Source: Escherichia coli
Lineage (GTDB): Bacteria; Pseudomonadota; Gammaproteobacteria; Enterobacterales; Enterobacteriaceae
DNA length: 64,000 bases
Assembly: GCF_044324785.1 (NCBI RefSeq)
Contig: NZ_CP172129.1
Strand: one strand, 5' to 3'
The first letter of the stretch is position 1. Each line of letters opens with the position of its first letter. The notes beneath the pieces were generated by a model. That model was not told the origin of the DNA and ran no database searches. It saw only the letters and a list, made by a program, of their open reading frames with translations. Both the position numbers and the translations under genes were made by a program. This document shows positions 9,799 to 58,103 of the stretch, in pieces.

Positions 9799-12000
9799 AT
9801 GATGATAAGCAAAAAGTATACGCTTTGGGCTCTCAACCCACTGCTTCTTACCATGATGGCGCCAGCAGTCGCTCAACAAACCGATGATGAAACGTTCGTG
9901 GTGTCTGCCAACCGCAGCAATCGCACCGTAGCGGAGATGGCGCAAACCACCTGGGTTATCGAAAACGCCGAACTGGAACAGCAGATTCAGGGCGGCAAAG
10001 AGCTTAAAGACGCACTGGCTCAGCTGATCCCTGGCCTTGACGTCAGCAGCCGGAGCCGCACCAACTACGGTATGAATGTGCGTGGCCGCCCGCTGGTCGT
10101 GCTGGTTGACGGCGTGCGTCTCAACTCTTCACGTACCGACAGCCGACAACTGGACTCTATAGATCCTTTTAATATCGACCATATTGAAGTGATCTCCGGT
10201 GCGACGTCCCTGTACGGCGGCGGCAGTACCGGTGGCCTGATCAACATCGTGACCAAAAAAGGCCAGCCGGAAACCATGATGGAGTTTGAGGCTGGCACCA
10301 AAAGTGGCTTTAGCAGCAGTAAAGATCACGATGAACGCATTGCCGGAGCTGTCTCCGGCGGAAATGAGCATATCTCCGGACGTCTTTCCGTGGCATATCA
10401 GAAATTTGGCGGCTGGTTTGACGGTAACGGCGATGCCACCTTGCTTGATAACACCCAGACCGGCCTGCAGTACTCCGATCGGCTGGACATCATGGGAACT
10501 GGTACGCTGAACATCGATGAATCCCGGCAGCTTCAGTTGATCACACAGTACTATAAAAGCCAGGGCGACGACGATTACGGGCTTAATCTCGGGAAAGGCT
10601 TCTCTGCCATCAGAGGGACCAGCACGCCATTCGTCAGTAACGGGCTGAATTCCGACCGTATTCCCGGCACTGAGCGGCATTTGATCAGCCTGCAGTACTC
10701 TGACAGCGCTTTTCTGGGACAGGAGCTGGTCGGTCAGGTTTACTACCGCGATGAGTCGTTGCGATTCTACCCGTTCCCGACGGTAAATGCGAACAAACAG
10801 GTGACGGCTTTCTCTTCGTCACAGCAGGACACCGACCAGTACGGCATGAAACTGACTCTGAACAGCAAACCGATGGACGGCTGGCAAATCACCTGGGGGC
10901 TGGATGCTGATCATGAGCGCTTTACCTCCAACCAGATGTTCTTCGACCTGGCTCAGGCAAGCGCTTCCGGAGGGCTGAACAACAAGAAGATTTACACCAC
11001 CGGGCGCTATCCGTCGTATGACATCACCAACCTGGCGGCCTTCCTGCAATCAGGCTATGACATCAATAATCTCTTTACCCTCAACGGTGGCGTACGCTAT
11101 CAGTACACTGAAAACAAGATTGATGATTTCATCGGCTACGCGCAGCAACGGCAGATTGCCGCCGGGAAGGCTACATCCGCCGACGCCATTCCTGGCGGCT
11201 CAGTCGATTACGACAACTTCCTGTTCAACGCCGGTCTGCTGATGCACATCACCGAACGCCAGCAGGCATGGCTCAACTTCTCCCAGGGCGTGGAGCTGCC
11301 GGACCCGGGTAAATACTATGGTCGCGGCATCTATGGTGCTGCAGTGAACGGCCATCTTCCTCTAACAAAGAGTGTGAACGTCAGCGACAGCAAGCTGGAA
11401 GGCGTGAAAGTCGATTCTTATGAGCTGGGCTGGCGCTTTACTGGCAATAATCTGCGTACCCAAATCGCGGCCTACTATTCGATTTCTGATAAGAGCGTGG
11501 TGGCGAATAAAGATCTGACCATCAGCGTGGTGGACGACAAACGCCGTATTTACGGCGTGGAAGGTGCGGTGGACTACCTGATTCCTGATACTGACTGGAG
11601 TACCGGAGTGAACTTCAACGTGCTGAAAACTGAGTCGAAAGTGAACGGTACCTGGCAGAAATACGATGTGAAGACAGCAAGCCCATCAAAAGCGACAGCC
11701 TACATTGGCTGGGCACCGGACCCGTGGAGTCTGCGCGTGCAGAGCACCACCTCCTTTGACGTGAGCGACGCGCAGGGCTACAAGGTCGATGGCTATACCA
11801 CCGCGGATCTGCTCGGCAGTTATCAGCTTCCGGTGGGTACACTCAGCTTCAGCATTGAAAACCTCTTCGACCGTGACTACACCACTGTCTGGGGGCAGCG
11901 TGCACCACTGTACTACAGCCCGGGTTACGGCCCAGCGTCACTGTACGACTACAAAGGCAGGGGCCGAACCTTTGGTCTGAACTACTCTGTGCTGTTCTGA
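9799..12000 (+). CDS. iutA: TonB-dependent ferric aerobactin receptor IutA
   Basis: 733-aa ORF with signal peptide, TonB box ETFVVSA and C-terminal aromatic residue typical of outer-membrane beta-barrels. Confidence 0.9.
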   Translation: MMISKKYTLWALNPLLLTMMAPAVAQQTDDETFVVSANRSNRTVAEMAQTTWVIENAELEQQIQGGKELKDALAQLIPGLDVSSRSRTNYGMNVRGRPLVVLVDGVRLNSSRTDSRQLDSIDPFNIDHIEVISGATSLYGGGSTGGLINIVTKKGQPETMMEFEAGTKSGFSSSKDHDERIAGAVSGGNEHISGRLSVAYQKFGGWFDGNGDATLLDNTQTGLQYSDRLDIMGTGTLNIDESRQLQLITQYYKSQGDDDYGLNLGKGFSAIRGTSTPFVSNGLNSDRIPGTERHLISLQYSDSAFLGQELVGQVYYRDESLRFYPFPTVNANKQVTAFSSSQQDTDQYGMKLTLNSKPMDGWQITWGLDADHERFTSNQMFFDLAQASASGGLNNKKIYTTGRYPSYDITNLAAFLQSGYDINNLFTLNGGVRYQYTENKIDDFIGYAQQRQIAAGKATSADAIPGGSVDYDNFLFNAGLLMHITERQQAWLNFSQGVELPDPGKYYGRGIYGAAVNGHLPLTKSVNVSDSKLEGVKVDSYELGWRFTGNNLRTQIAAYYSISDKSVVANKDLTISVVDDKRRIYGVEGAVDYLIPDTDWSTGVNFNVLKTESKVNGTWQKYDVKTASPSKATAYIGWAPDPWSLRVQSTTSFDVSDAQGYKVDGYTTADLLGSYQLPVGTLSFSIENLFDRDYTTVWGQRAPLYYSPGYGPASLYDYKGRGRTFGLNYSVLF

Positions 12001-12073
12001 CCGGTATTCCTTTACAACAAAGGTACGCTGATATCAACATGGCCGCTGACAGCCAAGTTGATATCATATAATA

Positions 12074-12134
12074 CACGACATAATCTGTAGTCAGGGAGGA
12101 TAGACTCTTTACTGACTACAGATTATGTCGTGTT
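12074..12134. repeat. Perfect 22-bp inverted repeat with 17-nt spacer downstream of iutA
   Basis: acacgacataatctgtagtcag ... ctgactacagattatgtcgtgt read directly from the sequence. Confidence 0.6.
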
Positions 12135-12524
12135 CCGTGCTCATTTCCTCAAAAAATACAAGAAAAGAATTAGTATTCTAACAAAAAGTGAAATAAATTG
12201 TATCAAACTCCCTCTTTTAATCCTGTTGAGTAAATCAGCTTTTGCAATAGGATTGAAAGAGTGTAAGTGGAATCTCTTCCGGATACTCGTTACCACCGTG
12301 GCTAGAATATCTACGGCTGCGGGCCAGTAATAGATTAAGTGATAACAGCTGTCTGGAAATGTAGGGGCGTATCCACTAATCATAATCATTGTGAGATAAA
12401 TATTACGGGGCATTTTATAATGAATAAAATATACTCTCTAAAATATTGTCATATTACCAATACCATGAAGGTGATGCTGCCAACTTACTGATTTAGTGTA
12501 TGATGGTGTTTTTGAGGTGCTCCA

Positions 12525-12800
12525 GTGGCTTCTGTTTCTATCAGCTGTCCCTCCTGTTCAGCTACTGACGGGGTGGTGCGTAACGGCAAAAGCACCGCCG
12601 GACATCAGCGCTATCTCTGCTCTCACTGCCGTAAAACATGGCAACTGCAGTTCACTTACACCGCTTCTCAACCCGGTACGCACCAGAAAATCATTGATAT
12701 GGCCATGAATGGCGTTGGATGCCGGGCAACTGCCCGCATTATGGGCGTTGGCCTCAACACGATTTTACGTCACTTAAAAAACTCAGGCCGCAGTCGGTAA
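12525..12800 (+). CDS. insA: IS1 InsA
   Basis: 91-aa [94 protein letters not shown]. Confidence 0.9.
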
Positions 12801-13222
12801 CCTCGCGCATACAGCCGGGCAGTGACGTCATCGTCTGCGCGGAAATGGACGAACAGTGGGGCTATGTCGGGGCTAAATCGCGCCAGCGCTGGCTGTTTTA
12901 CGCGTATGACAGTCTCCGGAAGACGGTTGTTGCGCACGTATTCGGTGAACGCACTATGGCGACGCTGGGGCGTCTTATGAGCCTGCTGTCACCCTTTGAC
13001 GTGGTGATATGGATGACGGATGGCTGGCCGCTGTATGAATCCCGCCTGAAGGGAAAGCTGCACGTAATCAGCAAGCGATATACGCAGCGAATTGAGCGGC
13101 ATAACCTGAATCTGAGGCAGCACCTGGCACGGCTGGGACGGAAGTCGCTGTCGTTTTCAAAATCGGTGGAGCTGCATGACAAAGTCATCGGGCATTATCT
13201 GAACATAAAACACTATCAATAA
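12719..13222 (+). CDS. insB: IS1 InsB (expressed as InsAB' by frameshifting)
   Basis: 167-aa ORF overlapping insA in the -1 frame, canonical IS1 layout. Confidence 0.85.
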
Positions 13223-13399
13223 GTTGGAGTCATTACCGCCTTGACCATCAGATAGTTATTTTGGTGCTAGGGATACTGAGTGTGAACAGTTAGCGCGCGT
13301 CCTCGCCAGTTAGCTCGCTACGCTCGGTTACACGACGGCTACGAGTACTAGTGATAATTATTGACTGAGGTATGTGCTCTTCCTGTTTCCTTTTTTGAT

Positions 13400-13500
13400 G
13401 TGTTGCTCTCATTTTAAACAACTTTGCGGTTTTTTGACTACTTTGCAATTTTGTTGTTGCTTTGCAATAAAATGCAAGATTAAATGAAAATATGCAAAGC
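13400..13500 (+). promoter_or_regulatory. sopAB promoter/operator with repeated CTTTGC SopA-binding motifs
   Basis: ctttgcggttttttgactactttgcaattttgttgttgctttgcaataaaatgcaag directly upstream of sopA. Confidence 0.5.
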
Positions 13501-13512
13501 AATGATTAAAGG

Positions 13513-14688
13513 ATGTTCAGAATGAGACTCATGGAAACACTTAACCAGTGCATAAACGCTGGTCATGAAATGACGAAGGCTATCGCCATTGCACAGTTTA
13601 ATGATGACAGCCCGGAAGCGAGGAAAATCACCCGACGCTGGAGAATAGGTGAAGCAGCGGATTTAGTTGGAGTATCTTCTCAGGCTATCAGGGATGCCGA
13701 GAAAGCAGGCCGGCTACCGCACCCGGATATGGAAATACGAGGACGGGTTGAGCAACGTGTTGGTTATACAATTGAACAAATTAATCATATGCGTGACGTG
13801 TTTGGTACGAGACTACGACGTGCTGAAGACGTATTTCCGCCGGTGATTGGAGTTGCTGCTCATAAAGGGGGCGTTTACAAAACCTCTGTTTCTGTTCATC
13901 TTGCTCAGGATCTGGCTCTGAAGGGATTACGTGTTCTGCTCGTGGAAGGTAACGACCCCCAGGGAACAGCATCGATGTATCACGGCTGGGTGCCAGATCT
14001 TCATATTCATGCAGAGGATACTCTCCTTCCCTTCTATCTTGGGGAAAAGGACGATGTCACTTATGCAATAAAGCCTACTTGCTGGCCTGGGCTTGACATT
14101 ATTCCTTCCTGTTTGGCTCTGCACCGCATTGAAACTGAGCTAATGGGCAAATTTGATGAAGGTAAATTGCCCACCGATCCACACCTGATGCTCCGACTGG
14201 CCATTGAAACCGTCGCTCATGACTATGATGTCATTGTCATTGACAGCGCGCCTAACCTAGGTATCGGCACGATTAATGTTGTATGTGCTGCTGATGTGTT
14301 GATTGTCCCCACGCCTGCTGAGTTGTTCGACTACACTTCCGCTCTGCAGTTTTTCGATATGCTTCGTGATCTGCTCAAAAACGTAGATCTTAAAGGATTC
14401 GAGCCTGATGTACGTATTTTGCTTACCAAATACAGTAATAGTAATGGTTCTCAGTCCCCGTGGATGGAGGAGCAAATTCGGGACGCCTGGGGAAGCATGG
14501 TCCTAAAAAATGTTGTGCGTGAAACGGATGAAGTTGGTAAAGGTCAGATCCGGATGAGAACTGTTTTTGAACAGGCTATTGATCAACGCTCTTCAACAGG
14601 TGCCTGGAGAAATGCCCTTTCTATTTGGGAACCTGTCTGCAATGAAATTTTCGATCGTTTGATTAAACCACGCTGGGAGATTAGATAA
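13513..14688 (+). CDS. sopA: Partition ATPase SopA (ParA family)
   Basis: ORF contains [38 protein letters not shown] and Walker A KGGVYKTS; alternative start 9 nt downstream possible. Confidence 0.9.
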
Positions 14689-15659
14689 TGAAGCGTGCGC
14701 CTGTCATTCCAAAACATACGATTAAGACTCAACCGCTTGAAGATACTCCGTCATCGGCACCAGCTGCACCGATGGTGGATTCGTTAATTGCGCGCGTAGG
14801 AGCTATGGCTCGTGGCAATGCTATTACTTTGCCTGTATGTGGTAGGGACGTGAAATTTACCCTTGAGGTGCTCCGGGGAGATAGTGTTGAGAAGACCTCT
14901 CGGGTATGGTCAGGTAATGAACGTGACCAGGAACTGCTTACCGAAGACGCCCTGGATGATCTTATCCCTTCTTTTCTACTGACAGGTCAGCAGACACCAG
15001 CATTCGGTCGAAGAGTGTCTGGGGTCATAGAAATTGCCGATGGGAGCCGCCGTCGTAAAGCTGCTGCACTTACAGAAAGTGATTATCGAGTTCTGGTTGG
15101 TGAGCTGGATGATGAGCAGATGGCTGCATTGTCCAGATTGGGTAACGATTATAGGCCAACAAGTGCTTATGAACGTGGTCAGCGTTATGCAAGCCGATTG
15201 CAGAATGAATTTGCTGGAAATATTTCTGCGCTGGCTGATGCAGAAAATATTTCACGTAAGATTATTACCCGCTGTATCAACACAGCTAAACTGCCTAAAT
15301 CAGTTGTTGCTCTTTTTTCTCATCCCGGTGAACTATCTGCCCGGTCAGGTGATGCACTTCAAAGAGCTTTTACAGATAAAGAAGAATTACTTAAGCAGCA
15401 GGCATCTAACCTTCACGAGCAGAAAAAAGCAGGAGTGATATTTGAAGCTGAAGAAGTCATCACTCTTTTAACGTCTGTGCTTAAAACGTCATCTGCCTCA
15501 AGAACTAGCTTAAGCTCACGACATCAGTTTGCTCCTGGAGCGACAGTGTTGTACAAGGGCGATAAAATGGTGTTAAACCTAGATAGATCTCGTATTCCAA
15601 CTGAGTGTATAGAGAGAATTGAAGCCATTCTTAAGGAACTTGAAAAAGCGGCACTTTGA
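14688..15659 (+). CDS. sopB: Partition centromere-binding protein SopB (ParB family)
   Basis: 323-aa ORF overlapping sopA stop, followed by sopC repeats. Confidence 0.9.
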
Positions 15660-15750
15660 TGCGGCACGTTTTAGTCTACATTTATCTGTCTTTACTTAAT
15701 TTCCTTTAGCACAGGCTAGAAAACATAACTAACTGGCCTGAATATTATAT

Positions 15751-16094
15751 CTGGGACCACGGTCCCAGTTGTATTGTCGGTCTGATAATCAGTCTGGGAC
15801 CACGGTCCCACTCATATTGTCGGTCTGATAATCAGTCTGGGACCACGGTCCCACTCATATTGTTGGTCTGCTAATCAGTCTGGGACCACGGTCCCACTCA
15901 TATTGTCGGTCTGCTAATCAGTCTGGGACCACGGTCCCACTCATATTGTTGGTCTGATTATCGGTCTGGGACCACGGTCCCACTCATATTGTTAGTCTGA
16001 TAATCAGTCTGGGACCGCGGTCCCACTCGTATTGTTGGTCTGCTAATCAGTCTGGGACCACGGTCTCACTTGTATTGTCGATCTGATTATCAGC
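15751..16094. repeat. sopC: sopC centromere: 8 tandem 43-bp repeats
   Basis: Eight contiguous 43-bp units of ctgggaccacggtcccactcatattgtcggtctgataatcagt with minor variants, each containing the 7-bp inverted repeat TGGGACC/GGTCCCA. Confidence 0.9.
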
Positions 16095-16705
16095 GTGAGA
16101 CTACGATTCCATTAATGCCTGCCAGTGAGTGTGTGGAACATATCTTGGCCAGTGGCTTGGTCTGTGATGTGCTGCGTATACCGGGTGAACCGCCCCGCCG
16201 CTTGTTTGACCGCTATATTCTGCGGGAGTTTTCTTGGAGGCACGGGATGAAATCCGCAGCATGGCGGATGCCCTGGCAAAAATCCGGAAATGATGACGAT
16301 GGCGGGGAAAATCCCCGCCTTTTTCCTGCCGGTCCCCGGACAGAGCACAAAGGAAGTCGCCGCCGGCTCCGCTTTACCCGGCCATGCGGAGCATGGCCTT
16401 GTGGGGGTTCAGTTATGTGGACGTCGAGTCGTGTGCGGGCTGTGCCGTGCCTCCATCTTAGCCGGGCTGGCGTTGATGCAAGCAACTGTCTTAATGGGAG
16501 GCGGTTATCTGAAAAAAGTACGGGATAATATTATGGAATCGCCCATCTCAAGCAAAAAACTGACTCGCTTCGATACTACGCTGACAGGCTGTTTTGAGCG
16601 AGATATCTCTCGTGTCGGGCATCGACATTTTAAATGATTCTAAATAATATGAGCAGGGTCAGTCTTATTAAAGATTAAAACACCGGATAACAAGTTTTAT
16701 TGATT

Positions 16706-17281
16706 ATGGATGAAGAGAAAACTCGTGCTGAAGTGGCACACATAGAATTTATTTCATATGGTACGTCTCGAATTTTTGATAGGCGTATGAGATCCTTAGA
16801 CTGGAAGCGTAAGGTTGTCACCTTCCTTGGGGTCTTTGTTCCACTGATGATAGGTTGTGCAGTTTTATCATTCGGACTTGAAGCTCCATTTCTGCCGCTT
16901 TGCATCACAATTGCCGGTGTGGCAAGTATCATGCAATTGGGGTTCTCGCTGTGGTCTTTGGTTTCCGGATGGGATCGCTCATATAGTGATTGCATGGCTT
17001 CCGTTAAGGAAAATACAGCCATTTATAACCTAGCTGGTAGTGTTCGCAAGAAAATAGGTAAGCTTGACGAAGCCAAATTGGAAATTTTGATAGACGATTT
17101 GACGGAAAAATTTGAGCGAAGGGAGCAGGAAGACTTAACTTTGTGTGTGAGTGATAAAGAACTTCGTTATGCAAACCGTATGTCCTGTTTCTACTTCAAA
17201 AAAAAATGCCATATTTGTAATGTCGTTCCCCTAACTTTGAAACCGGGAAAATGTGTTTGTGATGGTTGTGGGAAATTTTAA
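16706..17281 (+). CDS. Hypothetical membrane protein: two predicted TM helices, charged helical region, C-terminal Cys cluster (CxxC...CxCxxC)
   Basis: ORF 16700..17281; AT-rich island; hydrophobic stretches VVTFLGVFVPLMIGCAVLSFGL and LPLCITIAGVASIMQLGFSLWSLV; C-terminal KKKCHICNVVPLTLKPGKCVCDGCGKF; no recalled homolog. Confidence 0.5.
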   Translation: MDEEKTRAEVAHIEFISYGTSRIFDRRMRSLDWKRKVVTFLGVFVPLMIGCAVLSFGLEAPFLPLCITIAGVASIMQLGFSLWSLVSGWDRSYSDCMASVKENTAIYNLAGSVRKKIGKLDEAKLEILIDDLTEKFERREQEDLTLCVSDKELRYANRMSCFYFKKKCHICNVVPLTLKPGKCVCDGCGKF

Positions 17282-17559: not shown

Positions 17560-19000
<1,441 letters not shown>

Positions 19001-53247: not shown

Positions 53248-54944
<1,697 letters not shown>

Positions 54945-54965
54945 TTAGTTAAAAGGATATTTTGG

Positions 54966-55697
54966 ATGAAAACAAAAAAATTGATGATGGTTGCACTGGT
55001 CAGTTCCACTCTGGCCCTTTCAGGGTGTGGTGCGATGAGCACAGCAATCAAGAAGCGTAACCTTGAGGTGAAGACTCAGATGAGTGAGACCATCTGGCTT
55101 GAACCCGCCAGCGAACGCACGGTATTTCTGCAGATCAAAAACACGTCTGATAAAGACATGAGTGGGCTGCAGGGCAAAATTGCTGATGCTGTGAAAGCAA
55201 AAGGATATCAGGTGGTGACTTCTCCGGATAAAGCCTACTACTGGATTCAGGCGAATGTGCTGAAGGCCGATAAGATGGATCTGCGGGAGTCTCAGGGATG
55301 GCTGAACCGTGGTTATGAGGGCGCAGCAGTTGGTGCAGCGTTAGGTGCCGGTATCACCGGATATAATTCCAGTTCTGCCGGTGCCACACTCGGTGTGGGC
55401 CTTGCTGCCGGTCTGGTGGGTATGGCTGCAGATGCGATGGTGGAAGATGTGAACTATACCATGATCACGGATGTGCAGATTGCAGAGCGTACTAAGGCAA
55501 CGGTGACAACGGATAATGTTGCCGCCCTGCGTCAGGGCACATCAGGTGCGAAAATTCAGACCAGTACTGAAACAGGTAACCAGCATAAATACCAGACCCG
55601 TGTGGTCTCAAATGCGAACAAGGTTAACCTGAAATTTGAAGAGGCGAAGCCTGTTCTCGAAGACCAGCTGGCCAAATCAATCGCAAATATTCTCTGA
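54966..55697 (+). CDS. traT: Surface exclusion / serum resistance lipoprotein TraT
   Basis: ORF 54855..55697, start set at [35 protein letters not shown] (lipobox LSGC). Confidence 0.9.
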
Positions 55698-55949
55698 TTA
55701 TCTTCCGGAGGCTGGTCTGACCGGCCTCCTGACTGACGCCTCGCTTTGCTCGTTGTCCAACCCCGGAAAGAAATAAAATAAATTTTATTTCTCCCCGGCG
55801 TTTCCGAAATAAATATGAAAACACTGAGCGGTTGTGCAAATTCTTTGTGCGACCGTGAAGTGTTGCCGGCGAAGCCGGAATTTAACGGTTATTAATCTTT
55901 TCATCATTAATAATCAGTCCGACTGACTTTTTTTCTTCGGAATATCATC

Positions 55950-58103
55950 ATGAGTTTTAACGCAAAGGATATGACCCAGGGCGGTCAGATTGCGTCCATG
56001 CGTATCCGCATGTTCAGCCAGATCGCCAATATCATGCTTTACTGCCTGTTTATTTTTTTCTGGATACTCGTTGGTCTGGTTTTATGGGTAAAAATAAGCT
56101 GGCAGACGTTTGTGAACGGCTGTATTTACTGGTGGTGTACCACGCTGGAAGGCATGCGGGATTTAATCAAGTCCCAGCCGGTATATGAGATCCAGTATTA
56201 CGGCAAAACCTTCCGGATGAACGCTGCTCAGGTACTGCATGATAAATATATGATCTGGTGCGGAGAGCAGCTATGGTCCGCATTCGTTCTGGCTACAGTT
56301 GTGGCACTGGTTATTTGCCTGATTACCTTCTTTGTTGTCTCCTGGATTCTGGGGCGTCAGGGTAAACAACAGAGCGAAAATGAAGTCACAGGTGGTCGTC
56401 AGCTGACGGAGAACCCGAAAGACGTTGCCCGGATGCTGAAAAAAGACGGCAAGGACTCCGATATCCGGATTGGCGACCTGCCGATTATCCGGGATTCCGA
56501 AATCCAGAACTTCTGTCTGCACGGCACGGTCGGGGCCGGTAAGTCGGAAGTTATCCGTCGTCTGGCCAACTACGCCCGTCAGCGTGGAGATATGGTGGTG
56601 ATTTATGACCGTTCAGGGGAATTTGTTAAAAGTTACTATGATCCCTCCATCGATAAAATCCTGAATCCGCTGGATGCCCGCTGTGCCGCCTGGGATTTGT
56701 GGAAGGAGTGCCTGACACAGCCGGATTTTGATAATACCGCGAACACGCTGATCCCGATGGGCACAAAAGAGGACCCGTTCTGGCAGGGTTCAGGACGTAC
56801 CATTTTTGCGGAAGCGGCGTACCTGATGCGTAATGACCCCAACCGCAGCTACAGCAAACTGGTGGACACACTGCTTTCCATCAAAATCGAAAAACTGCGT
56901 ACCTTCCTGCGTAATTCACCGGCGGCCAACCTGGTGGAAGAGAAAATTGAGAAAACGGCGATTTCCATCCGTGCTGTGCTGACCAACTACGTGAAAGCCA
57001 TCCGTTACCTGCAGGGGATTGAGCATAACGGTGAGTCTTTTACCATCCGTGACTGGATGCGGGGTGTCCGGGAAGATCAGAAAAACGGCTGGCTGTTTAT
57101 CTCGTCGAATGCCGACACCCATGCCTCCCTGAAGCCGGTGATCTCCATGTGGCTGTCCATTGCCATTCGTGGTCTGCTGGCAATGGGAGAAAACCGTAAC
57201 CGTCGTGTGTGGTTTTTCTGTGATGAGCTACCCACGTTACACAAACTGCCGGACCTGGTGGAGATCCTGCCGGAAGCCCGTAAGTTCGGTGGCTGTTATG
57301 TGTTTGGTATCCAGTCCTATGCCCAGCTGGAAGATATCTACGGTGAGAAAGCGGCTGCCACGCTGTTTGACGTCATGAACACCCGTGCCTTTTTCCGTTC
57401 TCCCAGCCATAAGATTGCAGAGTTCGCTGCCGGTGAGATTGGTGAGAAAGAGCACCTGAAAGCCAGCGAGCAGTACTCCTACGGTGCTGATCCGGTACGT
57501 GACGGGGTATCGACCGGTAAGGATATGGAGCGCCAGACGCTGGTCAGTTATTCCGACATTCAGTCTCTGCCGGATTTGACCTGTTATGTCACCCTGCCCG
57601 GACCGTATCCGGCAGTAAAACTCTCACTGAAATATCAGGCACGTCCGAAGGTTGCCCCTGAGTTTATTCCGCGTGACATCAACCCGGAAATGGAGAACCG
57701 CCTGAGCGCCGTACTTGCCGCAAGGGAAGCAGAAGGTCGTCAGATGGCCAGCCTCTTCGAACCGGATGTGCCGGAGGTTGTTTCCGGAGAAGACGTGACT
57801 CAGGCTGAACAGCCGCAACAGCCGGTGTCTCCTGCCATCAACGATAAGAAGTCAGATTCAGGTGTGAATGTTCCGGCAGGGGGGATCGAGCAGGAGCTGA
57901 AAATGAAACCGGAAGAAGAGATGGAACAGCAACTGCCACCCGGGATCAGTGAATCCGGTGAAGTGGTGGATATGGCCGCTTATGAGGCATGGCAACAGGA
58001 AAATCATCCGGACATCCAGCAGCAGATGCAGCGTCGTGAAGAGGTGAACATTAATGTGCACCGGGAGCGCGGGGAGGATGTTGAGCCGGGAGATGATTTC
58101 TGA
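55950..58103 (+). CDS. traD: Type IV coupling protein TraD
   Basis: 717-aa ORF, Walker [10 protein letters not shown]-terminal QQP-rich region ending DDF. Confidence 0.9.

Follow-up and report, generated by a model that had tools for sequence, protein, structure and literature searches.

The SopABC partition locus and its neighbouring IS1 on a ColV-type plasmid of Escherichia coli

Sop systems and the plasmid lineage

In plasmid F (NC_002483, 49.6–52.5 kb), the sopABC locus (ParABS-F) is preceded by repE and incC. SopA is a ParA-type Walker ATPase with an N-terminal HTH. Its operator has been defined as three direct CTTTGC hexamers with 19-bp spacing and an inverted hexamer 28 bp beyond (PMC8465637). 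Sop centromeres with 3–17 repeats occur, and one repeat is sufficient (PMC3177203). The sopC homologues in the survey of Pillet et al. 2011 (p1658/97, pAPEC-1, pColBM, pECOS88, pVir68 and others) have 3–17 repeats, including 8-repeat arrays with six consensus sites; they belong to the same Sop subfamily as the locus described here and differ from it only in repeat number and unit order, and p1658/97 has the same IS1–sop junction. Two ColV-type plasmids provide the wider context. pRK100, sequenced by hybrid assembly, has functional RepFIB and RepFIIA replicons and a copy number of about 1.3–1.7, and its sequence was conserved from 1990 to 2017 (PMC8978152). In pEC302/04 the sit and iuc genes lie between inverted copies of IS1, without target-site duplication (PMC4707298).

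We analysed a 64-kb stretch of E. coli DNA (the window). It is 99.99% identical to pRK100 over about 60 kb, aligning from shiF via iuc/iutA, sop and the leading region into tra as far as traI; the window has an IS26-sul2-repC(IncQ) segment at 1–2796 and an ISKpn26 insertion at 53750–54944, neither of which pRK100 has at these positions. Over 12000–16500, which covers the 8-unit sopC as well as the IS1 junctions, pRK100, pCERC5 and pCERC4 (CP060383, KU664810 and KU578032) are 100% identical to it. Aerobactin genes (iucABCD-iutA) and an F-like tra region lie on one molecule, as in ColV-type plasmids. The cvaABC/cvi operon, RepFIB and RepFII are carried by the 99.99%-identical pRK100, in which RepFIB RepA and IncFII RepA are both present; the window's 64 kb does not extend to them. 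The source lineage replicates from RepFIB and RepFII, without repE.

We conclude that the region is very probably the partition locus, normal and intact, of a ColV-Ia virulence plasmid of the pRK100/pCERC type with RepFIB and RepFII; it is a SopABC (type Ia ParABS) system with an IS1 fixed alongside and a sopC that is contracted and expected to be functional. The IS1–sopABC junction of the ColV plasmid is real, ordinary and previously known. The significance is small and mainly one of annotation: the sop locus is complete, and typical of a ColV lineage that is very common.

To the right of IS1, sopA, sopB and sopC follow in that order, and all parts of the Sop system are present in the window and conserved. 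An F-homologous region upstream of sopA (13297–13521, + strand) includes the sopAB promoter-operator, with CTTTGC at 13422, 13441 and 13460 and GCAAAG, in inverted orientation, at 13494; these are spaced 19/19/34, exactly as in F. The type Ia ParA ATPase gene sopA (13522–14688, + strand, 388 aa) matches the NCBIfam SopA equivalog NF010259 over its full length at 872 bits (cut-off 725), and its product is 99.7% identical to F SopA, with one residue changed (K2R). The gene for the ParB-family centromere-binding protein, sopB (14688–15659, + strand, 323 aa; NCBIfam NF010252 / PRK13698, Pfam SopB_HTH), scores 636 bits against a cut-off of 274 for NF010252, and SopB is 96% identical to its F counterpart (12 residues differ). 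Its ATG overlaps the sopA stop codon (14685–14690), and both this overlap and the gene order are as in F. At a dS of about 0.25 relative to F, dN/dS is 0.004 for sopA and 0.07 for sopB, that is, both genes are under purifying selection.

In such a system SopB would bind sopC at its 16-bp inverted repeats and assemble the partition complex, SopA, as a Walker ATPase, would segregate the plasmid copies, and SopA would also repress its own promoter via the four CTTTGC hexamers. Purifying selection and the persistence of pRK100-type plasmids suggest that the sop locus stabilises this low-copy plasmid. The literature, the conservation of the locus and the persistence of the lineage likewise suggest that partition is unaffected by eight repeats or by the adjacent IS1.

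IS1 and its junction with sop

To the left of the sop locus lies iutA (9799–12000, + strand), encoding the ferric aerobactin receptor and the last gene of iucABCD-iutA; we assigned it from the open reading frame list and from the iutA annotation in identical plasmids, and it gives the context on the left of IS1. IS1 elements are about 768 bp long and end in imperfect terminal inverted repeats of about 23 bp. The element at 12470–13237 (+ strand) is a complete, IS1A-like IS1 of 768 bp (NCBIfam IS1 transposase; Pfam InsA and DDE_Tnp_IS1) with the termini GGTGATGCTGCCAACTTACTGAT and GGTAATGACTCCAACTTATTGAT, its imperfect terminal inverted repeats being IRL at 12470–12492 and IRR at 13215–13237. 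It contains insA (12525–12800) and the insB' frame (12719–13222), with matches to Pfam Zn_ribbon_InsA, HTH_Tnp_IS1 and DDE_Tnp_IS1 and to NCBIfam transpos_IS1, and the A6C frameshift site of IS1, TTAAAAAAC, at about 12775–12777. From the end of IS1 it is 185 bp to the first operator hexamer and 284 bp to the sopA ATG (13522), in agreement with a preliminary description of this DNA that placed IS1 160–260 bp upstream of the sopAB operator.

A target duplication of 8–9 bp is the mark of a simple IS1 insertion. No 9-bp duplication surrounds this IS1 (left flank TACCATGAA, right flank GCCTTGACC), and none surrounds the whole IS1-sit-iuc-IS1 unit in one of the plasmids compared (L001); the differing flanks point to a later rearrangement at IS1 and leave the identity of the element as IS1 unaffected. 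The IS1-flanked sit/aerobactin module of pColV-K30 and pEC302/04 has the same arrangement as the window, iucABCD-iutA followed by IS1, and the lack of a target duplication matches what is reported for pEC302/04 (PMC4707298). Near-identical plasmids have another IS1, in inverted orientation, past sitA; in our sequence this upstream IS1 of the module either lies beyond the window or has been replaced by the IS26 region. The IS1 beside sop is very probably the 'downstream' IS1 of the IS1-flanked sit/aerobactin module, well known from ColV plasmids.

A lineage-specific 59-bp segment (13238–13296, + strand) separates IS1 from the point at which F homology starts; in PLSDB it is restricted to the 588 plasmids that carry the sop allele of the window, and a sensitive search found no other homologues. 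We counted junctions in the 588 PLSDB records with the 63-nt IS1-adjacent segment, scoring the IS1 junction at ≥80% coverage, and found it in 585 of them. Among complete E. coli genomes it is present in 597 of 5,426, a lineage accounting for about 11% of them, and the identical junction spans E. coli, Salmonella, Shigella and Klebsiella. A junction common to so many plasmids and genomes must be old, not recent. We also sought an IS1-free version of the sop allele, from which the ancestral upstream DNA could be recovered, and there was none in PLSDB; the one apparent IS1-less exception that we inspected, H130, has the IS1 after all. The whole 4.5-kb region is 100% identical, in one piece, in at least 30 complete plasmids.

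The two sides of the element differ. On the IRR side there is a single junction, while on the IRL side at least seven different junctions occur in 19 plasmids, three of them nested endpoints no more than 40 bp downstream of iutA. The IRR junction with sop is probably ancient and fixed within the lineage, and the IRL side would have been reworked many times via IS1-adjacent deletions and recombination between IS1 copies. As a fixed element, this IS1 marks a cargo-rearrangement hot spot. A bolder version of this, which we consider unlikely, is that the invariant junction serves as a permanent docking or recombination point at which cargo (aerobactin/sit, a microcin J25-like cluster, other DNA) is swapped yet always stays linked to sop, the only partition locus active on the plasmid, IS1 possibly also insulating PsopAB from neighbouring transcription.

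A slightly less likely alternative still is that the fixed IS1 is functional for sop, for example by insulating PsopAB from Fur-regulated read-through from iutA or by providing an outward promoter, so that the junction is kept by selection and not by descent alone. The invariance of the IRR junction next to a variable IRL side would fit this, as would the polarity of IS1 insertions and a terminator-like site that our scan placed on the + strand inside the 3' part of IS1. However, common descent and the need for an intact sop explain the invariance equally well, F and other Sop plasmids work without IS1, and the promoter scan found no + strand promoter-like site at the right end of IS1. The promoter and terminator scans around IS1 gave counts not above those of shuffled sequence, and we excluded them from the evidence.

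Relation to F and the RepFIA replicon

Homology to F is confined to 13297–16121 of the window. The two sop loci are 92.5% identical as DNA, with a dS of 0.25–0.27 and near-identical proteins; at this divergence the sop module of the window is a separate allele and not F's own copy. Unlike in F, repE and incC do not precede it: tblastn with F RepE, CcdA, CcdB and ResD gave no match in the window, and none of the F 19-bp iterons (incB/incC) was found there at up to three mismatches. The preliminary description was therefore right that the RepFIA replication region is absent from the window. RepE and Ccd are also absent from the whole of pRK100 by tblastn, and a missing RepFIA beside sop is the usual condition for these RepFIB/RepFII plasmids. 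PLSDB's MOB-suite typing labels pRK100 and some of its relatives 'IncFIA'. We rejected this label as a sign of a repE replicon, since F RepE in tblastn and the 40–56 kb region of F in blastn match the sop module only.

The same description implied that IS1 had taken the place of the RepFIA region normally found before sopA. In its full form, this would make the locus an F-derived RepFIA-sop region that recently lost repE/incC by IS1 insertion or deletion, leaving the partition and incompatibility module compromised. RepFIA is indeed missing, and an IS1 without target duplication means that some rearrangement happened. Nevertheless, we regard such a history as very improbable. The F homology begins 59 bp past IS1, and in F the last incC iteron is about 110 bp upstream of the corresponding point, so there is no visible cutting of the RepFIA region by IS1 here; the sop DNA and that of F have diverged to a dS of about 0.25; pRK100 lacks repE (PMC8978152); and the junction, shared unchanged by about 585 plasmids and 597 genomes, is old and fixed, with variation on the iutA side and not on the sop side. 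Nor does the module look compromised, the operator and genes being intact and under strong purifying selection. An ancient RepFIA linkage of the sop allele is formally possible.

An effect on incompatibility had also been suggested. This is reasonable but trivial. The replication-based determinants (incB/incC) are absent. The SopB sites are identical to those of F, and centromere-based (IncD-type) incompatibility should therefore remain. Taken as a whole, the earlier interpretation is partly supported and for the most part unsupported.

The sopC array

Tandem Repeats Finder reports 8.0 copies of 43 bp with 92% matching at 15750–16093 (+ strand); we take this 344-bp array, with the unit order ABCDEFGH, as the sopC centromere. 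The 16-bp SopB site TGGGACCACGGTCCCA, which F shares along with the 43-bp repeats, is perfect in six units; of the other two, one is altered by a central A>G change and the other by an arm mismatch. Matches to the site number 15, against 0.05 expected by chance, and are located only in sopC. As in F, a degenerate terminal unit follows (16094–16136, + strand), the homologue of the unit counted as F's twelfth repeat. The preliminary description gave sopC as 8 repeats against 12 in F. The array is indeed shorter and has eight units, but the figure of 12 does not compare like with like: F counted by the same criterion has 11 units, the classical twelfth being its degenerate terminal unit, so that the comparison is 8 with 11 or 9 with 12, and the difference is three units, not four.

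Among 18 sampled relatives sopC has between 6 and 15 units, most often 12 (9 of 18). The modal array is ABKLGDDDEFGH, from which ABCDEFGH can be derived by formation of a K/G hybrid unit (C) and reduction of DDD to D. BLAST identity bands mix copy numbers and cannot be used for counting exact 8-unit arrays, and we used instead a 129-nt signature across hybrid unit C, which is present at ≥99% identity in 54 of 625 PLSDB records. The eight-unit sopC would be a heritable contraction of the modal twelve-unit array via unequal recombination between repeats, and the array frequencies together with the hybrid unit suggest that the direction was from 12 to 8 units rather than from 8 to 12.

That the eight repeats instead arose in assembly, through the collapse of a 12-unit array in short reads, is most improbable: short-read assemblies can collapse tandem 43-bp repeats, and twelve is the modal number, but the array is merely 344 bp long and no simple truncation, having a specific hybrid unit in a fixed order, the signature in 54 independent plasmid records marks a real inherited contraction, and at least 30 complete plasmids, among them pCERC5 and the hybrid-assembled pRK100 (PMC8978152), match the whole 4.5 kb exactly. 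Since Sop centromeres differ greatly in copy number and a single repeat is enough, normal function is expected of the contracted array; on the same grounds (PMC3177203) the suggestion that eight repeats might lower partition efficiency is not supported. The number of sopC repeats is a fast-varying character, with no known functional consequence, and the order of the units might be used as a fine-scale marker of ColV sublineages.

Organization of the sop locus and its divergence from F

We read the layout of the locus from the sequence at 11000-17000, the ORF list and Tandem Repeats Finder. The gene iutA (9799-12000) is followed by 469 bp of non-coding or remnant DNA, a complete IS1 on the plus strand (12470-13237), 284 bp of intergenic DNA, sopA (13522-14688), sopB (14688-15659), a 90-bp spacer and the centromere sopC, which consists of eight tandem 43-bp repeats (15750-16093; 8.0 copies, 92% matches in Tandem Repeats Finder). 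The preliminary description of an IS1 close to the sop operator and a short sopC was correct, as seen from this layout, the SopB sites and the 185 bp that separate IS1 from the first CTTTGC hexamer downstream.

SopA and SopB both score above their NCBIfam equivalog cut-offs (872 vs 725 bits and 636 vs 274 bits, respectively). Comparison with the 40-56 kb region of plasmid F (NC_002483; fetched as L002, with its own coordinates) yields homology only in 13297-16121, at 92.5% identity. The promoter-operator is as in F: CTTTGC occurs three times in direct and once in inverted orientation, at the identical spacing of 19/19/34, the hexamer arrangement described for PparAB-F (PMC8465637). Over sopAB (13522-15659, compared with L002 9790-11927), a single residue separates SopA from its F counterpart, and sopA shows 58 synonymous changes to 1 non-synonymous (dS 0.25, dN/dS 0.004); SopB differs at 12 residues (dN/dS 0.07). 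The divergence of sopAB from F, together with purifying selection, rules out a recently damaged copy of F's sop; this is instead an old allele that evolves separately under strong purifying selection. The dN/dS of 0.004 for sopA indicates a degree of constraint that is unusual among plasmid genes, and half of the SopB changes are grouped within residues 12-24.

Homology to F ends at about 16121, which places a second module boundary there. Just past sopC, 16290-17281 holds a 115-aa ORF that matches no family and a TIGR04402 protein ('mobilome CxxCx(11)CxxC'), with ISEc32 (IS110 family) beyond them at 17767-18738.

RepFIA and the parent plasmid

RepFIA had been described as missing upstream of sopA, and it is: the 64-kb window contains no homologues of RepE, CcdA/B or ResD and no F iterons, even with up to 3 mismatches allowed. 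The incC iterons of F stop near L002 9457, and homology to the window begins at L002 9567; on the window side, the 59 bp that separate IS1 from the homologous region (13238-13296) resemble neither F nor IS1. The iteron-based IncFIA determinants are absent from the locus.

The arrangement of F, with RepFIA preceding sopA, does not hold for this lineage. At least 30 complete plasmids share the 4.5 kb at 12000-16500 as one uninterrupted match of 100% identity, among them the ColV-Ia plasmids pRK100 (CP060383), pCERC5 (KU664810) and pCERC4 (KU578032), and pRK100 as a whole aligns with the window at 99.99% identity, over 2797-53749 and 54945-64000. Besides colicin Ia and an F-like tra region, pRK100 has cvaABC/cvi, iro, iss, sit and iuc/iutA. 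For replication it encodes a RepFIB RepA and an IncFII RepA, and RepE and Ccd have no tblastn match anywhere in it; sop without adjoining RepFIA is therefore the normal state of the lineage. Both replicons, RepFIB and RepFIIA, are functional, the copy number is ~1.3-1.7, and pRK100-type isolates were near-identical from 1990 to 2017 (PMC8978152). MOB-suite typing in the plasmid database PLSDB gives 'IncFIA' for NZ_CP060383.1, NZ_CP023363.1, NC_025179.1 and others; with no repE found in pRK100 by tblastn, this designation seems to reflect a typing artefact.

The window differs from pRK100 at 1-2796, where it has sul2, a fragment of an IncQ-type repC and a complete IS26 (1977-2796). The IS26 directly adjoins a shiF-like MFS gene, located upstream of iucA, and cuts off that gene's 3' end. 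It also carries a 1,195-bp IS5-family element (ISKpn26-like) in the traS/traT region (53750-54944), flanked by a 4-bp TTAG duplication. This insertion is missing from pRK100 and was not found in exactly this form in any PLSDB plasmid; it may be polar on the tra genes distal to it.

The sopC array and expected function

The 16-bp SopB site TGGGACCACGGTCCCA is perfect in six sopC units, and the remaining two have a central A>G and an arm mismatch, respectively; the 64 kb contain no such site outside sopC. By one criterion for both plasmids (43-bp register, at least 55% identity to consensus), the count is 11 units in F and 8 in the window. The classical twelfth repeat of F is a degenerate terminal unit (CGTGAGACTACGATTCCA...) with a homologue in the window at 16094-16136. 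The array is thus indeed shorter than that of F, but like for like by three units, not the four first reported.

Array sizes in 18 related plasmids are 6, 8, 9, 10, 11, 12 (n=9), 14 (n=2) and 15 (n=2) units. With each distinct unit coded by one letter, the modal array reads ABKLGDDDEFGH and that of the window ABCDEFGH. Unit C has its left part as in K and its right part as in G, and only one D remains of DDD, so two unequal-recombination steps would account for the loss of four units. Comparable changes are seen in other arrays (deletion ABKLGH, duplication ABDABKLG...). Assembly collapse of the repeats, an earlier worry, is ruled out by a 129-nt probe over units B-C-D, found at ≥99% identity in 54 of 625 records: the eight-unit array is real, an inherited minority allele (~9%) of the pRK100 sublineage. 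Sop centromeres with 3-17 repeats, including those of p1658/97, pAPEC-1, pColBM and pECOS88, were reported by Pillet et al., who judged repeat number unimportant, citing that a single repeat suffices (PMC3177203).

The cis and trans components of the F-type partition system are all present and conserved. SopB would load onto six to eight sopC sites and then spread, and SopA would partition the complexes and repress PsopAB at the hexamers, the locus probably serving a RepFIB/RepFII plasmid at one to two copies per cell. Among the pRK100 annotations listed, there is no ParA- or ParM-type partition gene besides sopA. As the SopB sites are identical to those of F, the locus is expected to show centromere-based incompatibility towards plasmids with an F-type sop. 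The initial interpretation of the locus is largely not supported.

IS1 and its junctions

The IS1-sop configuration is already known and very common. The element is 768 bp long, with terminal repeats imperfect as usual for IS1 and two reading frames matching InsA and the IS1 DDE transposase. Its 9-bp flanks are unlike (TACCATGAA vs GCCTTGACC), with no target duplication, so IS1 is not in a simple insertion site. It leaves intact the ~85-bp operator and 125 bp of conserved DNA upstream of it.

The 63-nt stretch on the right-hand side of IS1 is shared by 588 PLSDB plasmids; in 585 of these, a probe bridging it and the end of IS1 is covered, and the weakest match, inspected individually, also has IS1. 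The junction is found in 597 of 5,426 complete E. coli genomes and, in PLSDB, on Salmonella, Shigella and Klebsiella plasmids. The 59-bp segment at 13238-13296 has no further homologue in PLSDB, and hence there is no IS1-free ancestor to compare.

The IRR-side junction is identical in all 19 fetched plasmids; on the IRL side these have at least seven distinct junctions, comprising three nested endpoints in the 40 bp after iutA, two distinct ones next to 1.5-kb hypothetical genes, one at a lasso-peptide (microcin J25-like) cluster and one at sitD. Such variation is the pattern we would expect of IS1-promoted adjacent deletions and recombination between IS1 copies. In two ColV-type relatives (L009, NC_025179.1; L013, NZ_CP097727.1), a microcin J25-like lasso-peptide cyclase and ABC exporter replace iutA to the left of the sop-linked IS1. 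In pRK100 and in L001, a related plasmid, another IS1, in inverted orientation, is located on the far side of sitA, giving the classical IS1-flanked sit/aerobactin arrangement, which was reported to lack target duplications in pEC302/04 and has been traced back to pColV-K30 (PMC4707298).

About 70 bp past the iutA stop, at 12073-12133, the two 22-bp arms of a perfect inverted repeat enclose a 17-nt loop; the structure could act as a terminator or bind a protein. At 12420-12469, the start of an ORF (MNKIYSLKYCHITNTM...) is interrupted after 16 codons by the left end of IS1; in other plasmids IS1 abuts this ORF sequence 19 or 39 bp further upstream. The ORF start may resemble the extended signal peptide of autotransporters.
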